From a virus (lineage: Duplodnaviria > Caudoviricetes), in the IMG/VR virus record IMGVR_UViG_3300034095_001474, positions 32,001 through 96,000 of that record: a DNA stretch of 64,000 nt; one strand, written 5' to 3'. Below the pieces are notes generated by a model. That model did no database searches. It saw nothing but the letters and a program-made list of their open reading frames with translations, and had not been told where the DNA came from. The position numbers and the translations under genes are program-made. Below are positions 26,272-64,000 of this stretch, one piece after another (position 1 is the stretch's first letter; each line of letters begins with the position of its first letter).

Positions 26272-26370
26272 TGATAATGGTAGGAATCGAACCTACTCTT
26301 AGAATCTCGACTACGGGTGTTATCGCCACCCATAGTCACTGTTTCTCGTGCTTCCAAACACTGCATTACC
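26272..26370 (-). ncRNA. tRNA-like RNA B with extended anticodon arm
   Basis: acceptor GGTAATG/CATTATC, D-arm GTGT-TTGGAA-GCAC, T-arm GTAGG-TTCGATT-CCTAC; AGAA/TTCT stem, internal loop, 11-bp stem capped by GCGATAA. Confidence 0.75.
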
Positions 26371-31633: not shown

Positions 31634-32188
31634 TTAAATATGACCTAATTCTTTGTGTATTTTAGTCAAACCTAACCCCTCTACATTCATATGTCCACTT
31701 GCAACAATCCATGATATGATAAAAATTATAATCATTGCACAAAAAAAGATAGCATATCTATTAAAAACATCATCAGTAGCAGCATTTATTACGTTTATTA
31801 TAAATTTACCAAATAATGTCATCACTACTATAACAGAAATGCATGCCATATGCATACAAACCAATGAAACCAAGGTATCTGCTTCGATAAAAAAGTTAAG
31901 TATTAAACTCATTATCCAACCATTGGTACAATCATATATAAAATAACCACTCAATATTGGAATGGCTAAGTATATAAAGTTGAACTTACCAGTAAAATGT
32001 GCCATTAACATCACAAGTATAATAGGTGATGCGATAGCACAAAATAACCCACCAATAATCAAATAACCACCTAGACTAAACAATTGCAATGTTGCAAATG
32101 TATCAAAATCATATTCGTTGGCTGTGAAACTTTTGCCGTCAGACGTTTCACCTTTTATTACGTTTTTTGGAAAAATATTGAAACTCAT
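31634..32188 (-). CDS. multi-pass membrane protein
   Basis: about 5 hydrophobic segments. Confidence 0.7.
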   Translation of the reverse strand: MSFNIFPKNVIKGETSDGKSFTANEYDFDTFATLQLFSLGGYLIIGGLFCAIASPIILVMLMAHFTGKFNFIYLAIPILSGYFIYDCTNGWIMSLILNFFIEADTLVSLVCMHMACISVIVVMTLFGKFIINVINAATDDVFNRYAIFFCAMIIIFIISWIVASGHMNVEGLGLTKIHKELGHI

Positions 32189-43790: not shown

Positions 43791-45746
43791 TTACAAACTA
43801 ATTAAACTCAAATTTATGTTCTTTTTCTCTATATCAACTGACGAAATAACTACATGTACCACGTCACCTAAACGTATGATATTCCCAGTGTTATGACCTT
43901 TTACTCTGTAGTTTTCAGCATCAGCAACATATGTATCACCAATGATTTCACTCAACCTTACAAGACCATCACAACCATTATCTTCCATAGTAATAAACAA
44001 ACCGTAATCAGTTACACTAGTAACCATACCCTTGAATATTTTACCCACCTTATCAGACATATAGATACATTGCATGTATTTGATACTATCTCTCTCAGCT
44101 TTTTGTGCTTTCTTCTCTCTTTCAGACAAGTGACCACACTTAGCATCTAGTTTTGCTATGTTAGGCAAAGATTTAGATGTACCATCTAAGTACATACCTA
44201 ACAATCTATGTACGATTACATCTGGATAACGTCTGATTGGACTAGTAAAGTGAGCATAGTTCTTGAACCCTAACCCATAGTGACCAATATTTTTGGTCAT
44301 GTAGTTAGCTTTTTGCATTGTACGTACAACCAAGTTGCTAATCATATCCTCTTCAGCGGTACCTCTAACATCCATTAGTAGTTTATTCAACGTACTTGTT
44401 GTTTCTTCTGGTGTACTTATCTTGATATCATAACCAAATTGTATTATAAAGTCTTTAAGTTGTTCTAACTTTTCTTCGTTAGGTTTCTCGTGTGCTCTGT
44501 TTACCATTGGAAACTGACGACTATTAACATATTGTGCAACATGTTTGTTTGCTAGCAGCATGTATTCCTCAATAAGTTTGTTAGAATCTTTACCAACCTT
44601 GAATATAATATCAACTGGTTTGTTATTTTTATCCAATTTGAACTTGATTTCATGTTTGTCGAATGATAAAGAACCTTTTTGTAAACGTACCTTACGCATT
44701 TTCTTAGCAATCTTATCAAGTGTTTTGATTGGTTGATGAAAAGGATATGCATATGCAACCTCTTCATGTGTTGATGTTGCTAGATATGGTATACCTAACA
44801 CATTTCCATGTTCTATTATGTTCTGTGCTTCTTCATATGTAAATCTCATATCAGAATTGATAACAGTTCTACCGAACCACTCATCCAACACATGACCATT
44901 GTGGTCAATTTTAAACACCACTGAGAAGCAAAGTTTATCTTCGTTAGGTCTTAGTGAACAAAGTCCGTTAGATAAGTTCTCTGGAAGCATAGGTACACAT
45001 CTATCTACAAGATAAACACTAGTTCCTCTACCATAAGCTTCTCTATCCAATTCTGTTTCTGGACGCAAATAATGTGATACATCAGCAATGTGAACACCAA
45101 CAAACAACTCACCGTTTACCCATTCAACACTCAGAGCATCATCGAAGTCTTTTGCATCATGTGGGTCAATAGTAAATGTAAGCACATTACGCATATCTCT
45201 ACGTTTTTCTATTTCTTCTTGAGTTATTTCAGTTGAGATTGCATCAGCTTCTGCGATTACATCTTCTGGGAAATCATATGGTAATCCATATTCTTCAAGG
45301 ATACTATGTATCTCTGTTTCGTGTTCACCAGCATCACCTATGATTCTAACTATTTTACCGTTAGGGTTCTTTGCGTTATCTTTCCAATCAGCCAATTGTG
45401 CAACAACCTTTTGTCCATGAGTTGCACCATTTAATTTATTCAAAGGAATAAAGAAATCGATTGCTAATTTGTTTGAGTCTGGGATAAAGAATGCAAACTT
45501 CTCGCTAATCTCAATTGTACCAACAAATTCTGTTCTGAATCGTTCGATTATCTCAATAACTTTACCTTCGATTGACCTTCCTTGTCCAGCAATTACCTCA
45601 ATTCTAACTGTGTCTAAATGTAACGCTTTGTTCGTTTTAGACTTATGTAAATAAATATCTTTTGGTAAGTCTACGCTAACCAAATATGCTGAACCACTTG
45701 CGTTCATACTTATTTTACCTTCTAATATGTCTCCTATTTTAATCAT
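43791..45746 (-). CDS. rnr: ribonuclease R
   Basis: TIDPHDAKDFDDA, VHIADVSHY, RGTSVY, IEEYML.AN, HFTSPIRRYPD, C-terminal S1 domain. Confidence 0.95.
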   Translation of the reverse strand: MIKIGDILEGKISMNASGSAYLVSVDLPKDIYLHKSKTNKALHLDTVRIEVIAGQGRSIEGKVIEIIERFRTEFVGTIEISEKFAFFIPDSNKLAIDFFIPLNKLNGATHGQKVVAQLADWKDNAKNPNGKIVRIIGDAGEHETEIHSILEEYGLPYDFPEDVIAEADAISTEITQEEIEKRRDMRNVLTFTIDPHDAKDFDDALSVEWVNGELFVGVHIADVSHYLRPETELDREAYGRGTSVYLVDRCVPMLPENLSNGLCSLRPNEDKLCFSVVFKIDHNGHVLDEWFGRTVINSDMRFTYEEAQNIIEHGNVLGIPYLATSTHEEVAYAYPFHQPIKTLDKIAKKMRKVRLQKGSLSFDKHEIKFKLDKNNKPVDIIFKVGKDSNKLIEEYMLLANKHVAQYVNSRQFPMVNRAHEKPNEEKLEQLKDFIIQFGYDIKISTPEETTSTLNKLLMDVRGTAEEDMISNLVVRTMQKANYMTKNIGHYGLGFKNYAHFTSPIRRYPDVIVHRLLGMYLDGTSKSLPNIAKLDAKCGHLSEREKKAQKAERDSIKYMQCIYMSDKVGKIFKGMVTSVTDYGLFITMEDNGCDGLVRLSEIIGDTYVADAENYRVKGHNTGNIIRLGDVVHVVISSVDIEKKNINLSLISL

Positions 45747-47685: not shown

Positions 47686-47994
47686 CTAAACTCCACCACC
47701 AATTGCTATTGTATAATTACCAGTTGCTATCGAATTATAACCCATTGCAACGGAATAGTTTCCACTGGGTCTTATTCTTTTCATTTCAACATATGTTGAA
47801 ATATCAAAGATAGCCCATTCATGTATGTATTGGTTAATTAAATCCTCACCAACACCAAAAATGGTTTTTAAATCATCAACCAAATCATCATAAAATTGAA
47901 AACATTGATTTGAATAATCGTAGATAACATCAACGTTATTTTCTAACCTAGTATTATAATGCCTATTCAAAAAGTGAAAGACAATCTCTCTCAC
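47686..47994 (-). CDS. hypothetical protein with YadA-head-like tail
   Basis: GNYSVAMGYNSIATGNYTIAIG. Confidence 0.65.
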   Translation of the reverse strand: MREIVFHFLNRHYNTRLENNVDVIYDYSNQCFQFYDDLVDDLKTIFGVGEDLINQYIHEWAIFDISTYVEMKRIRPSGNYSVAMGYNSIATGNYTIAIGGGV

Positions 47995-48494
47995 TTTTTA
48001 GGTTTTGGTTTTAAAGTTACAGACATTTTCTTACCCTCTAATTTAGGTAAAGACTCTGCTGTTCCATGTTCCTCAACTTCCAAAATTAGTTTCAACAACA
48101 ATTCTTGTCCCTTGTCAACATGATTCATTTGACGACCTTTGAACTGCATACTTATTTTAACTTTGTGTCCTTTATCTAAAAACTCAATGATGTGTTTAAT
48201 ACGATACTCAACATCATTATCAGAAGTATTTGGTCCCAACTTAATCTCTTTTAATTCAGCTGATTTCACTTTGTTCTTTAATTTCTTCTTTTGTTCATAG
48301 AGAAACTTTTCATAGTTTACTATTTTACAAATAGGTGGTGTTGTTGTAGTATTCACACAAACCAAATCCATTTCATCGGCTTGGGCCATTTTCAACGCTT
48401 CAGTTGTTTTAACGATACCTTCTGGTAGTCTAACAGAGTATTCTCTAATTTCTTCGTTTATAAAGTGTTCTCTTTTGTTATTAAATTTTTTCAT
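47991..48494 (-). CDS. infC: translation initiation factor IF-3
   Basis: INEEIR..VRL, AL.MA..DLV.V..PP.CKI.NYEKFLYE, KEIKL.PN..D, FL.KGHKVK..F.GR. Confidence 0.95.
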   Translation of the reverse strand: MKKFNNKREHFINEEIREYSVRLPEGIVKTTEALKMAQADEMDLVCVNTTTTPPICKIVNYEKFLYEQKKKLKNKVKSAELKEIKLGPNTSDNDVEYRIKHIIEFLDKGHKVKISMQFKGRQMNHVDKGQELLLKLILEVEEHGTAESLPKLEGKKMSVTLKPKPKK

Positions 48495-48942
48495 AAATGT
48501 ATTCAACTAATTCATAAATATCATTAACTTGTTTTATATTGTATTTCTCACAAACAATATCCACGTTTCCTTTTCTCCAAAAACCTTCTGGACAAATAAC
48601 TACCATCTTTTCACTACTCGCATGCAAACCCAATTCCAATAAAGAGATTGGTGATTTTGTGTTAGGGTCAAATACCATAACAATTATATCAGCTACTTCC
48701 AATCCGTTGAGTTCCCATTCTACTTGTTCTCTAAACTGTGGGTTTGTTATTTCTTGAGTCCATGAAGAATCCCAATCACTACGTCTAGGATTTAAAAATG
48801 TAATCATTTCATCTTTTAATCTTTCGATTAAATCTTTTTGCCAATCTATGGCTTTACCCATTTCTATTGAACCACCTAAAAATATTTTAGTGTTGGTCTT
48901 AACGTTGGGTATTTCGTTAGGTGCTTGTATTTCAATTGCCAT
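48481..48942 (-). CDS. nucleoside 2-deoxyribosyltransferase-like protein
   Basis: IFLGGSI, DWQ, NPRR.DW, QVEWEL..L..AD, PISLLELG. Confidence 0.85.
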   Translation of the reverse strand: MAIEIQAPNEIPNVKTNTKIFLGGSIEMGKAIDWQKDLIERLKDEMITFLNPRRSDWDSSWTQEITNPQFREQVEWELNGLEVADIIVMVFDPNTKSPISLLELGLHASSEKMVVICPEGFWRKGNVDIVCEKYNIKQVNDIYELVEYIYEKI

Positions 48943-49410: not shown

Positions 49411-49863
49411 TTATCTTGAAAATAATTGTTTTACTTTATCTAAACAAGCTACTTGTGTTTCATGTAACAATAATCTAGCGTCATCTACTGTCACCCATTT
49501 GTATTCATCCATTTCTGGAAAGCCACCTCTTTCCTCTGGTACATTTGAATTACATTGAATGGTAATCAACGATAAATCCAAGTACTCACATTCAGTCTCA
49601 AACAATACGAAAGGAATAAGCATTTTCTTTCTATGAGAATAGTTAACTGAATCCAACATAATCATTTTATCTTTATAATCAGATATGTCTATGTTAGTTT
49701 CTTCAAATGTTTCACGAATACAAGCATTAGCAAACGTTTCTAATGCTTCCACCTTACCTTTTGGAATACTCCAAACATTTGATGGGTGTTGTGTTGGGTG
49801 ACAAATCAATAATTTGTTTGATTTGTTAATTAAAAACACTCCAGCTGCCGTTATTTTACTCAT
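49411..49863 (-). CDS. NUDIX hydrolase
   Basis: WSIPKG..E..A.RE..EETN; PEMD..W. Confidence 0.9.
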   Translation of the reverse strand: MSKITAAGVFLINKSNKLLICHPTQHPSNVWSIPKGKVEALETFANACIRETFEETNIDISDYKDKMIMLDSVNYSHRKKMLIPFVLFETECEYLDLSLITIQCNSNVPEERGGFPEMDEYKWVTVDDARLLLHETQVACLDKVKQLFSR

Positions 49864-50030: not shown

Positions 50031-50466
50031 CTTCGTTTATTAATTTCATTTCTTTTAATATTCCTTCTATCTTCGCCCAATCAACAAATGGTCGGTTACT
50101 ATACACTGGATTAAAAATCAATGGACAACCCAACGCTGTATCATCTATCATAAATTGAGCATAACTTTTTGGTGATGATGTCCATAAATGTTGTGTTGGG
50201 TTCGATTGAATCCCATATAACGGTATATCATTTTCTTTAAACCAGTTAACAGCTTCAGTCAAATAAGTAACACCCTTGGTTACTATTTCAAAATGTTCAT
50301 TGAGTACATCATCAGAATCATTTCTCATAGTAAACAAGATAAGTTGGTGTCCGTTTTGTACCAATCTATTTAATACTCTTGCAGCACCAATATCTTTTCC
50401 AACTCTAGGAAAGTCATGTGTGGTACAAGTACCGTCAAAATCAATATTAAATGTTATCTTTTCCAT
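50023..50466 (-). CDS. HAD-like hydrolase (BT0820-like)
   Basis: IDFDGT, LILFTMR, WFKEN.IP, IDD. Confidence 0.8.
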   Translation of the reverse strand: MEKITFNIDFDGTCTTHDFPRVGKDIGAARVLNRLVQNGHQLILFTMRNDSDDVLNEHFEIVTKGVTYLTEAVNWFKENDIPLYGIQSNPTQHLWTSSPKSYAQFMIDDTALGCPLIFNPVYSNRPFVDWAKIEGILKEMKLINEDV

Positions 50467-50514
50467 ATTACAAATGTACAATTATTTTTTTATTAAAACA
50501 ATATCAAACATACT

Positions 50515-51294
50515 TTATTTTAATTTATTTTTTCCTTTTACCATATGTTTGCTACATTCTTCAAGCCATCCGTTTCTTAATGCAGAATTATATGATGATT
50601 TACTAATTTTAACCCAGTCATTGTATGAATTACATTTTAATGCAATTTCAAGGCTACGTTCTTTAGTCCAATATCCACGTGGTTTTACTAACTGCACCAT
50701 ATGAGTAGTTGCTTCTTCAAACCAACCATTTTTTCTAGCATTTGCACATGATGTTGAATTATTTTTTAACCATTCGGTCACAGTAGAAAATTGTTTTGCA
50801 TGTTCAATACAATTTTCTTTGTTCCAGTAACCCATAGGTTTTTGGTTTTCAACCATATGAGCAGCACATTCATCAATCCATCCGTTTTTTAATGCAGAAT
50901 TATAACATGGTTTGTTATTTCTTAAAAATTGAGTTCTCGTTTTATATTTCAGTGCTTCTTCTATACATTTTTCTTTATCCCAATACCCTCTAGGTTTGCG
51001 ACCTTTATCAATATGTGCTGTGCACTCAATAACCCAATCGTTATAATAAGCTATTTTATACGACATTTGATTAAATTCTCGCCATTCTTTAATTGAATTA
51101 TATTTAAGTGCTTCTTCTATACATTTTTCTTTGGACCAATACCCTTTTGGTTTTCTATTGGTTGGGGGAATTTTAAATTTCCAACCAAACATATCACAAA
51201 TTTCTTTTGTAAGTTTTAATCTTACAGCACGGTCATAAGCTTTAGGGTCATTTTTACCCCATTCAGTTAATGAATTATATTTACTTTTATACAT
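50515..51294 (-). CDS. tandem-repeat protein (about 4 x 65-aa GYW..E.C.EEA.KY repeats)
   Basis: repeats visible in translation. Confidence 0.8.
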   Translation of the reverse strand: MYKSKYNSLTEWGKNDPKAYDRAVRLKLTKEICDMFGWKFKIPPTNRKPKGYWSKEKCIEEALKYNSIKEWREFNQMSYKIAYYNDWVIECTAHIDKGRKPRGYWDKEKCIEEALKYKTRTQFLRNNKPCYNSALKNGWIDECAAHMVENQKPMGYWNKENCIEHAKQFSTVTEWLKNNSTSCANARKNGWFEEATTHMVQLVKPRGYWTKERSLEIALKCNSYNDWVKISKSSYNSALRNGWLEECSKHMVKGKNKLK

Positions 51295-53362
51295 TATAAG
51301 ACATTTTTGTTGTTGTCTTTTTCATATGTGCACTGCATTCATCTAACCACCCATTTTTTCTAGCTTCTTTCATAGAACCATTACTTTTTTCTTGCCATTC
51401 AACTTTATTTTTATATTTTAAAGCTTCAGCTAAGACATGTTCTTTAACTTTCCAATAACCCATAGGTTTTCTATCTTGTTTCATATGTGCAATACACTCA
51501 TCATAACAACCTAAAGGTTTAGCTCTGGAGAACCCTTCACCCAATTCTCTCCATTCTTTAGGTGTGTTCCATTTTCTAGCTTCTGCAATTAATAGTTCTC
51601 TGGTCCAAGTACCATTAGGTCTAACTAAATAGACCATATGTGCTGTACATTCATCATGCCAACCGTTTTTCTTAGCTGATTTATATGAACTTGAACTATT
51701 TTTAGACCATTCACTTCTTGTTTTATATTTCAAAGCTTCAATCAAAACAGTTTCTTTTGAATCCCAATAACCTTTTTTGGTTGATAATTCCATATGTGCT
51801 GTACATTCATCATGCCAACCATTTCTACGTGAAACTTCTAATGAAGCACCTCCATTCAAACGCCAATCTTTTATGTTATTATATTTCAACGCTTCAACCA
51901 ACACATTTTCTTTTATTTGCCAATACCCCATAGGTTTTTGGTTTTCATCCATGTGTGCTGTACATTCATCATACCAACCATTTCTAATTGCTGATTTTTT
52001 AGCCGCAGAACTTTTTTTCTGCCATTCAGTTTTGCTTTTATATTTTAAAGCATCTTCTAAACATTTTTCTTTATCATTCCAATACATTGGTGGTTTTTTT
52101 AATAATTCCATATGTTCTAAACATTCATCTAACCACCCATTTGTTCTTGCAGCCCATACTGATTTTTCATCAGCTTTAACCCAATCTAATCTATTATCAT
52201 ATTTTTTAGCAATGGATAACACTTTTTCTTTGGTCCAAAAACCAGCTGGGGTGTGTCCTTCAGCATATTCCATATGAGCTATACATTCATCATACCAACC
52301 ATTTTGGTTAGCTGAATGATATGCACCAGACGAGTTTTTACTAAAATCACTTCTTGTTTTATATTTCAAAGCTTCAGTCAACACATTTTCTTTTATTTTC
52401 CAATGACCATTCCTAGCAGTTGAAAAAATCATATGACTTGTACATTTGTCTATTAAATTTTGCTTTTTCGCTGCTTGATAAGCTCCTTGTTCATCTTTAA
52501 GCCAATCACTATAATATTTGTATTTTTTAGCAGTTTCAAGTAATACTTCTTTGGTCCAATACCCAACTGGTTTATTAATTTCAATCATATGAGCTGTAGC
52601 CTCTTCAAACCAACCATTTTTTTTGGCTGAATTATATGAAGCACCATGAGAATTTGGTCCAGTACCCCATTCACTTCTTGTTTTATATTTAAATGCTTCA
52701 GCCAATACGTTTTCTTTAATTTGCCAATAACCAAGTTTTTTATAGTTTTCAACACCCATCTCTGCCAAACATTTAGCGTATAACCCTTCAATTTTAAAGG
52801 CCGTAGAATATGAAGTGGATGAATTATTTTTCCATTCTTTAGGGTTATTATATTTTTTTGATTCTTCAAAAATTGTTTCAGCGTTCCAATAACCAGCTGG
52901 TTTAGCCTTAATATAACCCATTTCATCTGTACATTTATCATATAATCCTTCAATTTTAAAAGACATAGAATATGAAGTTGATGAACCCTTTTTCCATTCA
53001 GTAGGTGTTTTATATTTTTTTGATTCTTCAAAAATTGTTTCAGCATTCCAGTAACCATTTGGTTTAATTAAAAAGCTCATATGAGCTGTTGCTTCCTCAA
53101 ACCAACCATATTTACGAGCAGCAGCATAAGCTGTTGCATTATTTTTAGTCCATTCAGTAGGTGTTTTATATTTCAACGCATCACATAATACGTTTTCTTT
53201 AATTTGCCAGTAGCCATTTCGGTGTAATTTAGTTTTTTCTTTTGGTAAATCCCAACCAAAAATTTCACAAATATCTGGTATAATACCAGATTTTTTAGCT
53301 GATTGATAAGCACTAGGATTACTTTTACACCATTCTGCTATCGATTTATACTTGCTGTCCAT
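51287..53362 (-). CDS. tandem-repeat protein (about 10 x 65-aa repeats)
   Basis: GYW..KE.VL.EALKYKT.SEW..S..AY..A.KNGW.DECTAHM repeated; no catalytic domain seen. Confidence 0.85.
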   Translation of the reverse strand: MDSKYKSIAEWCKSNPSAYQSAKKSGIIPDICEIFGWDLPKEKTKLHRNGYWQIKENVLCDALKYKTPTEWTKNNATAYAAARKYGWFEEATAHMSFLIKPNGYWNAETIFEESKKYKTPTEWKKGSSTSYSMSFKIEGLYDKCTDEMGYIKAKPAGYWNAETIFEESKKYNNPKEWKNNSSTSYSTAFKIEGLYAKCLAEMGVENYKKLGYWQIKENVLAEAFKYKTRSEWGTGPNSHGASYNSAKKNGWFEEATAHMIEINKPVGYWTKEVLLETAKKYKYYSDWLKDEQGAYQAAKKQNLIDKCTSHMIFSTARNGHWKIKENVLTEALKYKTRSDFSKNSSGAYHSANQNGWYDECIAHMEYAEGHTPAGFWTKEKVLSIAKKYDNRLDWVKADEKSVWAARTNGWLDECLEHMELLKKPPMYWNDKEKCLEDALKYKSKTEWQKKSSAAKKSAIRNGWYDECTAHMDENQKPMGYWQIKENVLVEALKYNNIKDWRLNGGASLEVSRRNGWHDECTAHMELSTKKGYWDSKETVLIEALKYKTRSEWSKNSSSSYKSAKKNGWHDECTAHMVYLVRPNGTWTRELLIAEARKWNTPKEWRELGEGFSRAKPLGCYDECIAHMKQDRKPMGYWKVKEHVLAEALKYKNKVEWQEKSNGSMKEARKNGWLDECSAHMKKTTTKMSYNV

Positions 53363-54860
53363 CTCTTATTGTTAAATATTCTTCTAAACTAACTCCCATT
53401 GCTGATGCAAAAATTTTATCATCAGTCCATGTTAAAACTCTACCATGACCTAACATTTTTTTAACGTCATTGATTGTTGTCATCTTATAGATACTAACTG
53501 GATTACTTAAATTATGTAATATATCTTTGAACAAATCAATAACGTCAAAAGTAAATTCTGGTAATATATTCTGATTTTTTTTATTGCTACTACCACTAGA
53601 AGTACCACCACTTCCAGTACTGGTTCTTTTACCTTTGATAACTGGAATCTCTAAATTATTAAAGTTTTTACCATCAAATAATAACAAATAATTTTTGTCA
53701 GTTAACATTAGAGCACCACACATAGATAAATGTGTCAAAGACATGTTGTGTAATTCTTTTGGTGTAAGTTTCAAATAGAATTTTTGAGTTTCTGGTCCAC
53801 CTCTAAGTACTCGACTAAACATTTGATAGATAACATCTGGGTTATGTGTTCCAGACATATCTATAATATTCATCAAATTAACATCATTGTAACCTAATTT
53901 ACCTCTGTTAACAACAACCAATACATCATACATGTTGTTTTTAAATTCAGTTATTATATCCCCATTTACATCACATTCAGAATGTGATACAGCAGAATTA
54001 ACACCCATTTCTAAAAGGATTTTGTTAACCATTTCAGCTTGTTCTTGTCGTTTACAAACAATCATTGTTTTACCTATAGTTTTATAAGTAAAAGCCCAAG
54101 TTTTTATTTTTGTTAAAAATGAAGGATGATTAAATTGTTCGGCTTTTAACCCGTATTTAATCCTAGCCATTAATTTTTCCATAACAACTTCTAAAGTTGA
54201 TTTGGTATCATCGTAGGTGAATCTAAACTTTTTAGTCACCTCATTATTAGAATCGTAGAAACCACTCCATTTATAATCAGATGCAACCAATTCAACATTT
54301 AATTTTGCAAACCATTCAGAACTAATTTCGTTTGATGCAATTACATATATATCAAATAACGGTTCAATATTTGGTTTATTCTCTCTTTTGTTTTTAGCTA
54401 CATGTTCTTTATTTTTAAGAATAAATTTAGATGGTGTTCCAGTAAGTAATAACTGTTTTGATGGTTTTACTTTATCGATAATTCTTTGAACACGTGGTGC
54501 TAAATAATTCTCATGTGCTTCATCAATTACAACAAAATCATAATGACCTTTTATTTTATGTTCGATATTAGGTAAACATAAATGCACTTGTACGTTTTCA
54601 TCTAAATTTGTTGAGTAAGTAAATGATACTTTAATCTCTTTTAACCTATCAACAAAGTTATCCAACAACACATTCGTTGAATGGGTTAAGATTAAAACTT
54701 TAGCTTTTGTAAAAAGTTTTAAATACTTTTCAACAACATCTATTGTTATTTCTGTTTTACCACCACCTGGAGCAATTGCTAAAACACATTTTTTAGACCC
54801 CAACACATAATTAGATGCTGGTTCTTGATAATCCCTTAATATTAACGTTCTTTTATTCAT
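53346..54860 (-). CDS. superfamily 2 DEAH helicase (Res-subunit-like)
   Basis: APGGGKT, DEAH, LTGTP, QMFSRVLR. Confidence 0.85.
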   Translation of the reverse strand: MNKRTLILRDYQEPASNYVLGSKKCVLAIAPGGGKTEITIDVVEKYLKLFTKAKVLILTHSTNVLLDNFVDRLKEIKVSFTYSTNLDENVQVHLCLPNIEHKIKGHYDFVVIDEAHENYLAPRVQRIIDKVKPSKQLLLTGTPSKFILKNKEHVAKNKRENKPNIEPLFDIYVIASNEISSEWFAKLNVELVASDYKWSGFYDSNNEVTKKFRFTYDDTKSTLEVVMEKLMARIKYGLKAEQFNHPSFLTKIKTWAFTYKTIGKTMIVCKRQEQAEMVNKILLEMGVNSAVSHSECDVNGDIITEFKNNMYDVLVVVNRGKLGYNDVNLMNIIDMSGTHNPDVIYQMFSRVLRGGPETQKFYLKLTPKELHNMSLTHLSMCGALMLTDKNYLLLFDGKNFNNLEIPVIKGKRTSTGSGGTSSGSSNKKNQNILPEFTFDVIDLFKDILHNLSNPVSIYKMTTINDVKKMLGHGRVLTWTDDKIFASAMGVSLEEYLTIRDGQQV

Positions 54861-54907
54861 AATTTTTTATTTATAATACAAAGGTATATATTATTTTTTA
54901 ATAAACC

Positions 54908-54942
54908 AAAAAAAATCCGATAAATTATCGGATTTTTTTTTT
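54908..54942. terminator. bidirectional terminator
   Basis: A8-TCCGATA-AAT-TATCGGA-T10. Confidence 0.7.
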
Positions 54943-56506
54943 ATTTGAACGTAGTGTACTCACCATTTTGAAAATTTATATGTTGGGCTCTACCATCTTC
55001 ATGTATTATAACATGTGATTGTAACCATGAACTTGGTCCTATATTGTAACCTACACGTAGTTTTGTAGATGTACCTACTGCTAATCCACCATCTTTTCTT
55101 CCAGGTGAGTGATAATGTCCTACTACACATTTAGTATTTAGTTTTCTAAACTGTAACAATGACCCACGACTTCCGTTAGCACCAACATCACCATGTTGTC
55201 CCAACTCCCAATCTTTAACTTTGAATGAAGTACTTCTATCCAACGTTGTCATCTTAGGGAAATTCTTCTCAATCAAATAAGGAATTATACCTTTAGGTGC
55301 ATCACCTTTCAAAATAGCATGTGAATATTCAATATACTCCAACGCATTTTTGATGTTCTTCTTCCAATCATTGTTAATAAGCCATCTATCGATAAAGTCA
55401 TCGTGGTTACTTCTAACGATAGTTACGTTGTATTTCTCAACTTTCTTCAACCACTCCAACATGTTTTCAACCTCACGTTTTACAGAGTTTGTACCATCTT
55501 GTTCTCTACGATATAATTGGAACGCATCTTTTGATTCGTGGTGACTAATAGAATGACCATCAAATACATCATGCAATACAACGTTTGCTGGTTTTAAGTT
55601 CTTTAACAACACATTAAGAGTTACATCAATAACTTCATCATCATGATGACCTAAGTGTAAATCACCCAACACAACTGCTGCAATTGTTTTTACTCTAGAA
55701 ACGTTACCTTTGGATACATTATGATACAAATCAGTAAACTCACCAGTTTTGTCATCAGCTGTTACTTGTCTGATAAAGAAAACTTCATCATCTTTAATCT
55801 CAACGATACAAAATCCGAATGTGTGGTGAAAATCACCTACCTTTCCAGACTTTGAATCAGTATAATTCTTTTCTGTAATCGAACCAGTGGTAAGCATTAT
55901 TTTAGGTACGTTACCATCTAGTACTGGAATCATTTCCATTTGTACTTTAGGTGCACCGAAAATACATGAATTCATACCACTTAAAGCATTCATACCAGTC
56001 ATTGGATTAACCGCAGTAGGTTGTACCTTGATATCACTCATGATACTAACGTATTTGTGTATGTCATGTCTGTTCGCATCCAAGTATTTTAAGATACTTT
56101 GGTCCCAAAATTCATTGTCTTCTTGCTCTGTAGTCCATGTACTAGTAGGGTTTTTGTATCTACCAGCGATAACATGTACAGATGCATTGATATATTCAGC
56201 GTATGCCTCTATGTTTTTAAGTAATCCAGAGTTAACTGGTGTGTTGTTTTGAGCCCATGTAACGATAAAACGCTTTTTATTGGTATCAAACTCCTTATTT
56301 TGAGCTAAAGTATATTGTTCTGGTACAACTTCATCTCTTTCTTTAAGTTTTAGCTTCTCTGAAACCCATTTTCTAATGGTTCTTTGTGTTACACCGAACT
56401 CAACAGCTAAATTATCAGCCCTTTTATCCCAAGATGTATTACCTTTGTCATTATAAACAGCAGTAATGTAATCTATTTGCAATTCTGTTAACTTTTTAAA
56501 CTTCAT
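54941..56506 (-). CDS. HTH plus calcineurin-like phosphoesterase protein
   Basis: N-terminal HTH (LAVEFGVTQRTIRKW); GDLH, LHDVFD, SNHD, HGD, GHYHS. Confidence 0.75.
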   Translation of the reverse strand: MKFKKLTELQIDYITAVYNDKGNTSWDKRADNLAVEFGVTQRTIRKWVSEKLKLKERDEVVPEQYTLAQNKEFDTNKKRFIVTWAQNNTPVNSGLLKNIEAYAEYINASVHVIAGRYKNPTSTWTTEQEDNEFWDQSILKYLDANRHDIHKYVSIMSDIKVQPTAVNPMTGMNALSGMNSCIFGAPKVQMEMIPVLDGNVPKIMLTTGSITEKNYTDSKSGKVGDFHHTFGFCIVEIKDDEVFFIRQVTADDKTGEFTDLYHNVSKGNVSRVKTIAAVVLGDLHLGHHDDEVIDVTLNVLLKNLKPANVVLHDVFDGHSISHHESKDAFQLYRREQDGTNSVKREVENMLEWLKKVEKYNVTIVRSNHDDFIDRWLINNDWKKNIKNALEYIEYSHAILKGDAPKGIIPYLIEKNFPKMTTLDRSTSFKVKDWELGQHGDVGANGSRGSLLQFRKLNTKCVVGHYHSPGRKDGGLAVGTSTKLRVGYNIGPSSWLQSHVIIHEDGRAQHINFQNGEYTTFK

Positions 56507-56534: not shown

Positions 56535-57071
56535 TTATATTGAAGGATACAACTTTGAAAGTGTTTTTTTCATCTTTATTTTACTTCTAAGTAGGTTTGT
56601 CTTAGATGAACTAACACTAATACCCAAAATTTTAGCTATTTCTTGATGGGATTTCTCTTCCAAGTAATACAAAGTAACAACTTTCTTATATTGAGGTGAT
56701 AAACTATCAATCAAAGTGGATATGTCGTTTATGAATATATCATAAAACGATTCTTGTTCATAATAATTAAACAAACCATCATGTATTTCAACCATGTTTA
56801 TATTCTTTTTCTTTCTATATAAGTCTATAGTTCTATTTTTAACGATTACTCGCATCCAAGCCTCTAGACTAGCTGTAGTGTTACCATTAAATCTATATAT
56901 GTTTTCATATATACTAATAAATGATTCTTGTACTAGGTCTTGCACATCGCTACCACCGTTAGAATATTTGTAAGCAACACTTAACATCTTTTGATAAAAG
57001 AGTTTATGTAACATATATTGAGCTCTAGAGTTGTTATCTTTGCAACCTTGAACAATTTTATCCAGTTCCAT
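56535..57071 (-). CDS. ECF-type RNA polymerase sigma factor
   Basis: AQ..L..Y, DLVQE.F, W...I..N..ID, L.YLE..SH.EIA..LGIS..SK..L.R. Confidence 0.9.
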   Translation of the reverse strand: MELDKIVQGCKDNNSRAQYMLHKLFYQKMLSVAYKYSNGGSDVQDLVQESFISIYENIYRFNGNTTASLEAWMRVIVKNRTIDLYRKKKNINMVEIHDGLFNYYEQESFYDIFINDISTLIDSLSPQYKKVVTLYYLEEKSHQEIAKILGISVSSSKTNLLRSKIKMKKTLSKLYPSI

Positions 57072-57085
57072 TATTTTGTTTTTAG

Positions 57086-57328
57086 TTACCAACTACCAAC
57101 ATCAGTCAAATCCAATTTAGTACCATCAGCACATTTAACCACTTCTATCACACCTAAACCAGTAGGTGTGAAACAGAATGTGTATGCACCACCAATAGCA
57201 CCAACATTAACTTCACCCTTTGCCTTGTTCTTTTCAATACGCCATGTATCGAATTTTTTCATTTGCTCTGCTGTTAGAGTAAATGTACGGTCTTCATAGA
57301 CCTTTTCTTTTTTATCGCTCACTATCAA
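57086..57328 (-). CDS. hypothetical protein
   Basis: GAIGG.Y.F.FTPTGLG family. Confidence 0.75.
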   Translation of the reverse strand: MIVSDKKEKVYEDRTFTLTAEQMKKFDTWRIEKNKAKGEVNVGAIGGAYTFCFTPTGLGVIEVVKCADGTKLDLTDVGSW

Positions 57329-57436: not shown

Positions 57437-58483
57437 TCATACTGTTTCTAATTTTTTACCTTTTAATACTTCGTAACTCAAATTATTATTGATAGCGGCA
57501 ATTGCCAAACCAATTTGTTCTGCAACACTAATAACAATTGTTTTTTCACAACCTTTGATAATGTTATAACATTTTGTTTCATTAAATTCTTTATTACATA
57601 ACTCATTAGCAGTCTTCAATGCTAATGAATCACTAATAATAAGCGATTCTAATTTGCTTTCACCAATTCGTTCCATCGCTGGACCAGACAATACACCATG
57701 ACTGATTATTGCTCTAACTGATTTAGCACCAGCATCTTTCAACACTTCAGCAGCTTTACACAATGTTCCAGCTGTATCAACCATGTCATCCAAGATGATA
57801 ACGTGTTTATCTTTAACATCACCGATTATAACCATTTCATCAATTACATTGGCTTTGCTACGAGTTTTGTCTAACATAACATAATTAAGATTGATATTGT
57901 GTCTTTTCATCAATTGGTCTTTCATACGTTTTACACGTTTACCAGAACCAGCATCTGGTCCACATAAAATTGTTTCACCATCAAAAAATTTAGTCATTTC
58001 AGCTATGTGTTTATCAAACACGTTTTTACCTTCGATGTGTGTTAGTGGTATGTTGAAGAATCCTTGTATTTGGTCAGCATGTAAATCAAATGTAATTACA
58101 GATGTTGAACCACGATGTTCTAGCATTTCAGCTATAATTTTAGCACCGATTGGTCCTCTACTTTGGTCTTTCTTATCTTGACGAGCATAAGGAAAATATG
58201 GTAAAATCGGTATGATTTCTTTAGCCGCACCACGTTTAGCTGCATCTATTGCTAAATTCAATTTCATTATTTCATCAGAGTTATTTGGACTTGATAAAAT
58301 ATAAACACGTTTACCTCTAACCGAATCAGTAAAATCAACACATAACTCTCCATCAGAGAATTTTTGAGTTCTTAATTTACCCAACCCTAATTCTTCGTCA
58401 CGCATAAGAATATTTGTTTCTTCTAAAATAGCGTTTGTTAGTTCATCTCCAACATTTAATGAGAATAATAATGAATTATACAT
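57437..58483 (-). CDS. prs: ribose-phosphate pyrophosphokinase (PRS family)
   Basis: FSDGE, PYFPYARQDK, DLHADQIQGFF, PDAG, DDMVDTAGT. Confidence 0.9.
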   Translation of the reverse strand: MYNSLLFSLNVGDELTNAILEETNILMRDEELGLGKLRTQKFSDGELCVDFTDSVRGKRVYILSSPNNSDEIMKLNLAIDAAKRGAAKEIIPILPYFPYARQDKKDQSRGPIGAKIIAEMLEHRGSTSVITFDLHADQIQGFFNIPLTHIEGKNVFDKHIAEMTKFFDGETILCGPDAGSGKRVKRMKDQLMKRHNINLNYVMLDKTRSKANVIDEMVIIGDVKDKHVIILDDMVDTAGTLCKAAEVLKDAGAKSVRAIISHGVLSGPAMERIGESKLESLIISDSLALKTANELCNKEFNETKCYNIIKGCEKTIVISVAEQIGLAIAAINNNLSYEVLKGKKLETV

Positions 58484-59664: not shown

Positions 59665-60387
59665 TTATTTTGTTATTAATTCATTTACTATTTCTGTTAT
59701 GCCTTCAACAGCATTTTTTCTAATGTACTCTACTTTAAGTCCGTAGTTAGACAAATAGTTCATTGGCTCTGGGTCAACGTAGATGATTCTACACGCATCA
59801 TTTTTGTCAGATACTTTTTGTCTAACGTTTGTAAGTACGTCCAATGTATAACCAATTTGTAAACTAGTTCCAACAACTATAAGAATATCTGCGTTGTAAA
59901 CTGCATCATAAGCTTCATCAACTCTATGTGGCATTTCTCCAAACCAAACTATGTCTGGTCTTAATTGAGAACCATTTTCTGGACACTTTGTACCCAATTC
60001 AATATCGTTGTAACCAACATGATATTTATTTTTTTTGGTCATACTATCACATGCCATGTTCAAAGCACCATGCAAATGAACAACATTGTGACAATTTGCT
60101 CTTTCTAACAAGTCAGATACATTTTGAGTTAAATGAATCACTTCATAGTCTTCTTCTAACTTACTCAAAGCCAAGTGAGCACCATTGGGTTCAACCTCTG
60201 GCATTTGTCTTCTACGTTCATTGTAGAAATTTAAAACTGTTTCACGTGATTGTCTCCAACCATTTGGTGTTGCTACATCATCAATCTTATGATTATTCCA
60301 CAACCCATCTATACAATCACGAAACGTTAGGACTCCAGACTCTCTATCTAATCCAGCACCGCTGAATATTACTATTTTCTTTTTCAT
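59665..60387 (-). CDS. cobB: Sir2-family NAD-dependent deacylase
   Basis: GAG..ESG..TFRD, PN.AH, TQNV.DL.ERA, HLHG, LRPDIVWFGE, GTSL. Confidence 0.9.
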   Translation of the reverse strand: MKKKIVIFSGAGLDRESGVLTFRDCIDGLWNNHKIDDVATPNGWRQSRETVLNFYNERRRQMPEVEPNGAHLALSKLEEDYEVIHLTQNVSDLLERANCHNVVHLHGALNMACDSMTKKNKYHVGYNDIELGTKCPENGSQLRPDIVWFGEMPHRVDEAYDAVYNADILIVVGTSLQIGYTLDVLTNVRQKVSDKNDACRIIYVDPEPMNYLSNYGLKVEYIRKNAVEGITEIVNELITK

Positions 60388-62554: not shown

Positions 62555-63006
62555 GGTACGTATTGAACAATCGTTACATACTCACCAATCATTTCATCCT
62601 CAATGATTTTCTCAATGATATCCCAATCACCACCAGCCAAACCAGCACCAATCATTGGCAATCCAAATGTTTTACCAGAGAACTTTTCTTTCATTTCTTT
62701 CAAACCAGAACGCAAAGCATCATAGTCTAAATCCATATTACCACTACGTCTACCTTTGGTATCGTATTGTGAATAAATGTTTACAATTGTTGGTTTACTG
62801 TAAACAGTATGAGAAATAGTCCCCATCTTTGATTCATCACCAGCAACTGTCTCACAGTCAGCTTCAAATGCTTCTGGAAACGCATTTTTAATTTGTGGTG
62901 CGATACCAGCACCCATAGCACAGAAACAGTTACAACCATGTGCTATTACATCGAATTTCCCTTCTTTGGCCATTTTCACTAAATCGCCTTCTACATATCT
63001 AATCAT
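62551..63006 (-). CDS. macrodomain protein (ADP-ribose binding/hydrolase)
   Basis: GDL, HGCNC..MGAGIA, N.YSQ, PMIGAGLAGGDW. Confidence 0.9.
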   Translation of the reverse strand: MIRYVEGDLVKMAKEGKFDVIAHGCNCFCAMGAGIAPQIKNAFPEAFEADCETVAGDESKMGTISHTVYSKPTIVNIYSQYDTKGRRSGNMDLDYDALRSGLKEMKEKFSGKTFGLPMIGAGLAGGDWDIIEKIIEDEMIGEYVTIVQYVP

Positions 63007-64000
63007 TATACTAATTGTTTATTTAATGTTATTATTCTTGCTCTATAACGTATATCTTCAAATGGTGTTTCAGTTAATAGTTTACCATTTTCAAAAACTG
63101 TTCTTAATTCATCACGTGATTCAACATACGTATCTTCCAATGATGTCACAGTGTAGTATTTACCAGTTGTATAGTGTTTAACCAATTTCAAACGACCTTG
63201 TTTAGATTTTTTGAATGATGGTTTCAAATCTCCATTCTCATCAACCTCTGTTGGTGATTTAACCAAATCACGGTGTTCACCATTTACTACTGCGAAACAT
63301 GCTTTTGTTGCAAAGTTTTGTGTATCTCTGTTGATATCAGCTTGTAACAATTTACCACCCATACCAAACACAATGTTTTCAGCAGAAATACCCAAAGAAG
63401 TCAACTCTTCGTAAATTTCAATAATTGAATTGATGTTTACACCATCACCTTGAATTACACGTACTTGTGGAGGTAAAACTTTGAAACCTTTATCGTTTAC
63501 GGTGTAACCAAATTTGTCAAACAAGATTGCAAACACTTCTTTTAATGTGTTGATAACGTGACCAGAATCTGGACGGATAACTAGTTGATTACCTGGAGTT
63601 GCTGGACGAGATAAAATCAAATCACGTAACTCAGTTCCCCATTTCTCAGAACATGCACGCAAGATATGGTAAGAGTCAGATACACACGCTACAATACCAG
63701 TAGGATATTGTTCCAACACACGTTTCATCATTTCAACTTCACCTTCTTCACCTTTCATAGTCATGATAGAGTGTTCAGTTGCTGGAACTGATTTACCAAA
63801 TACTGTGTTGGTATTGTAGTATTCACATATGCGTTTAGATGCAACAGTTGTATCAGAACCCATAAAGTTAATCAAGTGTGCTGAACCACCAATACCAGCT
63901 GATTGAACAGAAGATACACCTCTGAAACCGAAATCATTCAATACGAACTCAACAGCTACTCTCATGATATCTCCAGGCAACGAAACTGTTTTGTCGTAAT
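63006..64000 (-). CDS. nadV: nicotinamide phosphoribosyltransferase family protein (5' end beyond window)
   Basis: DFGFRG, SVPATEHS, VSDSY, IRPDSG, IQGDG, FGMGG; frame open to window edge. Confidence 0.9.
   Translation of the reverse strand, partial: YDKTVSLPGDIMRVAVEFVLNDFGFRGVSSVQSAGIGGSAHLINFMGSDTTVASKRICEYYNTNTVFGKSVPATEHSIMTMKGEEGEVEMMKRVLEQYPTGIVACVSDSYHILRACSEKWGTELRDLILSRPATPGNQLVIRPDSGHVINTLKEVFAILFDKFGYTVNDKGFKVLPPQVRVIQGDGVNINSIIEIYEELTSLGISAENIVFGMGGKLLQADINRDTQNFATKACFAVVNGEHRDLVKSPTEVDENGDLKPSFKKSKQGRLKLVKHYTTGKYYTVTSLEDTYVESRDELRTVFENGKLLTETPFEDIRYRARIITLNKQLV

Follow-up and report, generated by a model that had tools for sequence, protein, structure and literature searches.

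The stretch of DNA analysed here, called the window, comprises 64,000 nucleotides (nt; positions 32,001 to 96,000) of the IMG/VR virus record IMGVR_UViG_3300034095_001474 (Caudoviricetes). Three open reading frames (ORFs) located on its minus strand overlap by 17 and 8 nt, as described in a first-pass annotation made from the sequence alone: a superfamily 2 (SF2, DEAH) motor of 504 amino acids (aa), H (53346..54860), subunit A of 691 aa (51287..53362) and subunit B of 259 aa (50515..51294). The three genes are considered below as a candidate phage module in which a helicase would be served by separately encoded, interchangeable DNA-reading subunits.

H matched the Pfam families ResIII (E 6.5e-15) and Helicase_C (E 5.5e-9). 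With two RecA-like lobes, a Walker A motif, a DExH box, motif III and the motif VI arginines, it has the sequence hallmarks of an SF2 helicase/translocase, and its ATPase motif residues (G34-K35-T36, D113-E114-A115-H116, T140, Q346, R350 and R353) were invariant in 39 homologues. The whole of the predicted model (predicted local distance difference test score, pLDDT, of 84) could be attributed to the SF2 core and a short C-terminal helical part. The assignment of H to a subfamily from the top Foldseek matches, which were of the Snf2 type, was abandoned, the matches showing 12–17% identity and standing level with XPB and RIG-I-like proteins. No nuclease or methylase domain was detected in H, A or B by Pfam, PHROG, PADLOC and further profile scans, in agreement with the first-pass annotation, which had seen no nuclease; the sole hint was a weak match of an HNH-family PHROG to B (E 0.002), which fell on the repeats. 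PADLOC returned generic helicase-lobe matches for H and none for A and B, with no catalogued defence system matched, and the match of H to the HsdR profile was weak (27 bits relative to a cut-off of 550).

A and B are covered by repeats from end to end. A consists of a partial N-terminal unit, termed the plug, and 12 tandem four-helix repeats of 51–56 aa each (51287..53215, minus strand), and B of a plug and four repeats. The unit is therefore about 53 aa long and not about 65 aa as first proposed, and the full copies number 16 instead of about 14, plus the partial unit at each N-terminus. The predicted model of a plug with repeats had four helices in each repeat and three in the partial unit. 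The repetition is well in excess of what chance would give, with a 156-nt period and 13 copies of one 63-nt family at the DNA level. The duplication reported near 52850 and 53020 was found as a recent internal duplication in A (52724..53047, minus strand), but the two 162-nt copies (52724–52885 and 52886–53047) were 79% identical and not near-identical.

The array matched the unannotated phrog_20046 (E 1.5e-139), and no matching paper, curated Pfam family or solved structure was found for the repeat. Neither PF01541 (GIY-YIG) nor, at E up to 1, HA (PF03457) was matched by A or B in Pfam, and DUF8019 gave only faint matches. A PDB sequence search with A found nothing, and the fold searches with the plug and the first repeat, a short and helical query, gave a best Z of 3.4 and no Foldseek match below E 4. 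The structure 2jvw was rejected as a relative, its profile match (E 0.005) spanning a linker and being absent from the fold search. In proteins of Vibrio and Rhizobium phages, the repeat is located alongside GIY-YIG domains, and repeat clusters in the Atlas contained unnamed, GIY-YIG, DUF723 or NUMOD domains only. In Vibrio phage Va3, two adjoining genes annotated as hypothetical (L002:2953-5310) are repeat arrays around a GIY-YIG-like motif; this pair represents unannotated homing-type nucleases. With an E cut-off of 0.001, the plug profile matched 5,275 representative proteins, mostly via ordinary repeats, and the repeat is abundant and so far unnamed.

The split repeat and the plug-bearing genes

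The statement of the first-pass annotation that the helicase ends in part of a repeat and that A and B start with the remainder was borne out. Residues 478–489 of H (53394..53429, minus strand) correspond to helix 1 of the repeat, as they form a helix in the model and match a helix-1 profile; this tail is the proposed docking socket. The plug of A (residues 1–37; 53252..53362, minus strand) is the repeat without helix 1, finished by Gly-Trp, and scored 69 bits with the plug profile, and that of B (residues 1–38; 51181..51294, minus strand) scored 66 bits. The same element, helices 2–4 with Gly-Trp at the end, forms the conserved first ~37 residues of the related genes, called cassettes here. 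Since the Gly-Trp end was also found in complete repeats having helix 1, it is no substitute for this helix. Split helicases, which outnumbered the fused ones, were 470–505 aa long, 50–92% identical to H and ended after helix 1. When 110 helicases of split size were scanned with the helix-1 profile, built from the repeats, the top match fell within the final 40 aa of 93 of them, relative to about 7 expected.

A plug or repeat gene adjoined the helicase in 32 of the 34 split loci with flanking DNA, often as two to five genes, and at four loci (L014, L017, L076 and L080) cassettes were present upstream of the helicase too. A search from the plug side gave the same picture, with P0010, P0263, P0038 and L090 each located beside a split helicase, whereas the plug genes of L091 and L095 stand at contig ends. 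A 122-kb record has a single helicase, which is followed by all three of the record's plug matches, and the plug profile revealed no further plug in the rest of the 64-kb window. None of the six fused loci with at least 1.5 kb of downstream DNA had a plug gene. P0277, a candidate for a plug gene lacking a helicase, was rejected due to a full repeat at its start and a GIY-YIG-like end. Among the sampled repeat proteins, 67 had plug starts, all lacking GIY-YIG, and 142 GIY-YIG proteins began with a full first repeat, a count that covers GIY-YIG nucleases alone, with GIY-YIG status assigned partly by a simple motif; a single GIY-YIG protein among 143 had a plug-like start and was probably truncated. 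The first-pass annotation had allowed that the repeats might prove to be a DNA-binding module of homing endonucleases that does not co-occur with the helicase. The first part was found, as the repeat is a non-catalytic module of many GIY-YIG proteins, but the second was not, as the plug form tracks the helicase.

The cargo following the plug was diverse. Pfam identified DUF723 (E 1e-42; L016 and L090), INT_rpt (E 3e-39; L033), HA (E 7e-71; L035) and Hc1 (E 2e-11; L038), and the plug of P0280 leads into a repressor-type helix-turn-helix (HTH; E 3e-5). In a profile comparison of a window subunit with a protein carrying HA cargo, the plug alone aligned. Two plugs of locus L033, about 90% identical in DNA, diverge just past Gly-Trp, one into INT_rpt and the other into repeats, which points to a recent graft. 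The N-terminal half repeat is a conserved module borne by several genes per locus and joined to unrelated cargo, which was the main point missed in the first-pass annotation.

Some further genes at related loci deserve mention. The combination of a plug and the Bacteroidota histone-like Hc1 was clear by Pfam in one gene (L038:10983-11318), with a likeness seen by eye only in another (L035:3807-4184); such a protein may direct the motor to nucleoid DNA or proteins. Close relatives have a 53-aa gene directly before the helicase (L076:937-1098 and L080:4339-4500), with two short fragments resembling a plug start and no counterpart in the window, which is possibly a degenerate or decoy plug. Small downstream GIY-YIG and Smr genes were rejected as a nuclease acting in trans, as they were not beside the module in L077, L102 and L090.

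The fused homologues sought after the first-pass proposal of a split ancestral fusion do exist, many of them having the repeat array behind the same helicase type, whereas H, A and B were separate ORFs in four assemblies. The co-occurrence of the repeats with the helicase and the first-pass idea of a modular array working for a phage-borne translocase were likewise supported. With a distant clade of fused proteins as the root, the trees show alternating split and fused states, and a single clade of split and re-fused sequences was rejected (approximately unbiased test, p-AU 0.001); switching between the two states has therefore occurred more than once. Two re-fusions were in frame. In P0164 (one contig), a split-type tail is joined to a plug with two residues beyond a normal repeat. 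In P0121, 92% identical to H and found in seven contigs, the two are joined via a linker of about 17 residues; this protein is the sister of H on the tree and occupies the same genomic slot. Because of these re-fusions, the tail and the plug can be regarded as compatible halves. A CRISPR-like array (L083:1797-2287; 66-nt period and eight repeat copies) adjoins a Cas6 gene on a 326-kb contig, with a fused helicase some 5 kb away.

Across 30 junctions that differ in their helicase ends, the gene after the helicase started from -28 to +35 nt relative to the helicase stop codon. The second gene was in the +1 frame at 13 junctions, in the -1 frame at 15 and in frame after the stop at two, 12 junctions had no overlap and no common motif was found across the 30. 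The split between helicase and repeats is shared across the family as a conserved design.

Comparison with L081 gave ratios of nonsynonymous to synonymous substitution rates (dN/dS) of 0.11 for H, 0.31 for A and 0.48 for B; across comparisons H ranged from 0.11 to 0.15, and for the plug of B the dN/dS terms were 0.021/0.048, from few sites. Close strains retain H, while the number, length and position of cassettes vary, and one plug gene is interrupted by a stop codon (L102:6689-7135). The unit was found in differing gene neighbourhoods among relatives. The module is accessory and its cargo fast-changing, as genes engaged in conflict would be.

Proposed mechanism and competing explanations

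In the proposed mechanism, the locus would be an accessory module of Bacteroidota huge phages, made of a nuclease-free SF2 motor and a set of exchangeable DNA-recognition subunits, each with its own gene. In the fused form, the motor is followed by an array of the ~53-aa four-helix repeats known from GIY-YIG homing-type nucleases. In the split form, the gene is cut within the first repeat, with helix 1 kept by the motor and helices 2–4 placed at the start of each subunit. Tail and plug would very probably reconstitute a single repeat in trans, with one subunit docked at a time. The cargo behind the plug would pick the DNA sites, at which the motor, to judge from its family, would translocate, open DNA or strip proteins with no cutting. 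New specificities would come from copying of the plug onto new cargo or from gain and loss of repeats, events that the sequences show. A and B would be two alternative subunits for H in this phage. Given docking, the likeliest use would be action on host or competing-phage DNA during infection, a guess with about an even chance of being right, and an origin-like or transcriptional function involving the DNA of the phage itself may be considered as well.

The whole reading, a motor with interchangeable plug-bearing DNA-reading subunits, is somewhat favoured on the comparative evidence. The more ambitious version is a programmable phage machine of a new kind, in which a single nuclease-free motor has a one-helix socket for a library of plug-tagged DNA readers. 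These readers would originate in homing endonucleases, regulators and nucleoid proteins, and each would dock by making the split repeat whole. This version is held tentatively, at slightly below an even chance. By adding small genes, a phage with such a machine could redirect its ATP-driven remodelling of DNA to numerous sites in hosts or competitors.

Several observations speak against a motor with docked subunits. The tail tryptophan was conserved in 51% of helicases in comparison with 99% of internal repeats. The split-size helicases of L044 and L049 have no repeat gene nearby, and repeat genes at some loci (L101:5520, L029 and L043) start with a full repeat. Plugs were 47% identical within a locus and 37% between loci, for which gene duplication would suffice. 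Several cargoes, in L076, L080, L041 and L090, belong to no recognised type. Furthermore, the DNA-binding role of the repeat is deduced from domain company, with no solved relative; homing-type nucleases carry shuffled, repeated DNA-binding units beside the catalytic domain (PMC10448857), and since the repeat sits where these units are found, DNA binding by it is likely. A complex prediction with full H and the plug of A scored 0.29, the mark being 0.32, in a run without controls, and was counted neither for nor against docking.

The best-surviving alternative regards A and B as independent DNA-binding regulators, similar to CapR and descended from homing endonucleases that lost the nuclease, with the half repeat serving as an N-cap or self-association module and the helicase as a non-docking neighbour. 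There is precedent in the repressor CapR, a nuclease-less homing-endonuclease DNA-binding region acting alone (PMC10448857 and PMC8096241). Moreover, plugs were modelled with good confidence in the absence of a partner, and the GIY-YIG motif was missing from 63 of the sampled repeat proteins that begin with a complete repeat. However, a cap for this repeat would be needless on DUF723, HA, INT_rpt, Hc1 and HTH cargo, and the retention of the plug on these foreign folds therefore argues that it is more than an N-cap. The retention of helix 1 in the helicase, the clustering of plug genes only at the helicase and the in-register re-fusion would also be left unexplained, which makes independent regulators rather unlikely.

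The plug genes might otherwise be a recombination reservoir, in which shared plug DNA allows cargo to be swapped, or re-fused to the helicase, at the DNA level, with no gene other than the fused or first one being of consequence. The near-identical plugs on different cargo at one locus, the alternation of fused and split states on the tree and the variable cassette content of close strains are all in line with this. On the other hand, the split is the usual and stable state, B is intact in the second position at the dN/dS given above and each cassette begins with a start codon of its own. Neither a recombinase nor inverted sites were found near the module, and the helicase tail has no DNA homology to the cassettes. 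A reservoir as the sole role is accordingly improbable, but recombination probably generates the cassette diversity, which is compatible with a motor and its subunits.

A selfish or decaying element, that is, a helicase with homing-endonuclease debris spreading or drifting to no benefit of the phage, could account for an accessory unit found in different neighbourhoods and for the plug gene of L102 broken by a stop. It is highly improbable, as no nuclease, integrase or transposase was found that would provide mobility, purifying selection acts on H and more weakly on A and B, and the architecture is conserved across helicases that are about 50% identical.

Programmed frameshifting or read-through to one long helicase-array polypeptide, proposed in the first-pass annotation, is barely credible. 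In its favour, the two junctions of the window are both +1, a linker of such length is tolerated in P0121, and the closest relatives share the -17 overlap, although the recurring sequence is accounted for by the plug's own first codons. Against it, the junction offsets described above span all three frames with no shared motif, the frame of A opens one codon ahead of its ATG, cassettes also lie upstream of the helicase, and A ends in a complete repeat with no helix 1 to offer to B, so reading from A into B rebuilds no repeat.

Genomic setting of the module

The window has 30% guanine plus cytosine and small, densely packed genes on one strand. H, A and B are also encoded on a 304-kb contig, a 350-kb contig bears a close relative, and the relatives of the module come from lake-water metagenomes of many studies. 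A sigma-70-type promoter of Bacteroidota (TTTG ... TAnnTTTG; 54879..54910, minus strand), its function taken from the consensus, ends 19 nt before the ATG of H. This pattern occurred in the window in 50 copies relative to 5.2 expected, whereas a sigma-70 promoter scan of the window gave only chance-level results. A and B are probably co-transcribed with H from this host-type promoter, as deduced from its consensus. A 15-bp hairpin with T-runs on both sides (54908..54940), a putative terminator of the upstream gene, overlaps the upstream box of the promoter. About 45 near-identical 32-nt promoters of the Bacteroidota type were observed at 93–35353, mostly on the minus strand, each preceding one or a few small ORFs; this part of the window is an early-gene region made of promoter–ORF cassettes. 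The source is interpreted as a huge phage that infects Bacteroidota.

The helicase family was near-absent from prokaryotes, with one 4-kb contig of a Cytophagales metagenome-assembled genome found in a GTDB scan of 185,579 genomes. No relative of H was found by tblastn against 50,697 annotated phage records or in a single-sequence scan of viral contigs.

The full extent of the accessory unit (50467..54977) was defined by a related phage contig of run X5, about 88% identical to the window, from which it is missing as a block. This single contig joins position 50466 to 54978 with 36 other letters between them, the promoter, H, A and B all being gone together. The 521-aa protein encoded at 54941–56506 (phrog_1745, E 6e-151; metallophosphoesterase region) precedes the module in this clade and is retained in the empty-site allele.

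Other genes of the window include those for RNase R (43791–45746), IF3 (47991–48506) and an extracytoplasmic function (ECF) sigma factor (56535–57092), and a weak tRNA-like match was observed at 26272–26370 on the minus strand (30.1 bits, cut-off 29). NAD-related genes are located at 57437–58483, 59665–60387 and 63006–64000, and also in L004:239-7424 (phosphoribosyl pyrophosphate synthetase, SIR2, Macro and NAMPT-like genes); a NUDIX gene (49411–49863) was grouped with this cluster, which possibly serves NAD salvage countering NAD-depleting host defences.

Relation to known systems and significance

No description of a split motor with a plug module was found in the open literature, subscription journals lying outside the coverage. 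The known systems closest in layout are HA-repeat SF2 helicases (PF03457) and INT_rpt (PF14882) arrays, likewise composed of a motor and tandem small helical domains, and HA and INT_rpt arrays occur as plug cargo in relatives of this module. In contrast to HA-repeat helicases, the window repeat is not HA, and the array is detached and multiplied into several plug-sharing genes.

In type I restriction–modification systems, specificity comes from separate, swappable HsdS subunits. Their SF2 motor has a ResIII-type N-terminal lobe, as in H, although the match of H to HsdR was weak. The module differs in lacking a nuclease, a methyltransferase and a target-recognition domain (TRD) and in being phage-borne, and its docking would complete a split repeat. 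No DNA methyltransferase or TRD gene was found within 10 kb of the module, and likewise at the related loci examined, which sets the module apart from restriction–modification systems of both type I and type III.

UL9 of herpes simplex virus is an origin-binding helicase (PMC13261067). It has a recognition domain attached to an SF2 motor in one essential polypeptide. The motor is thereby steered to specific DNA sites, and its homology to H is claimed for the SF2 core alone. T4 UvsW is a phage SF2 helicase for which a separate gene, UvsW.1, encodes a small trihelical, potentially DNA-binding partner (PMC7824862). UvsW belongs to the core recombination genes and has a single, fixed partner, whereas the module is accessory, with up to five or more variable partners.

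GIY-YIG/T5orf172 homing endonucleases and CapR draw on the same pool of modular DNA-binding units (PMC10448857 and PMC8096241). Unlike these endonucleases, A and B have no nuclease, and the nuclease-bearing repeat proteins have no plug. The CapR/DUF723 zinc-finger domain is absent from A and B by Pfam and was found in the cargo of relatives only. A helicase is nowhere mentioned in PMC10448857, and the abstract of PMC8096241 contains no link to one.

The natural alleles available (empty site, split, re-fused and with different cargo) make the proposal directly testable. If docking is true, the module would be a natural plug-and-socket system derived from the cutting of a gene within a repeat; its tag, some 37 residues long, can be joined to at least five unrelated domain types. 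It would also offer a common testable model for the many uncharacterised proteins that combine a helicase with a repeat array (HA, INT_rpt and DUF723), with swappable DNA-targeting cargo and would show a route for the domestication of homing-endonuclease DNA readers.

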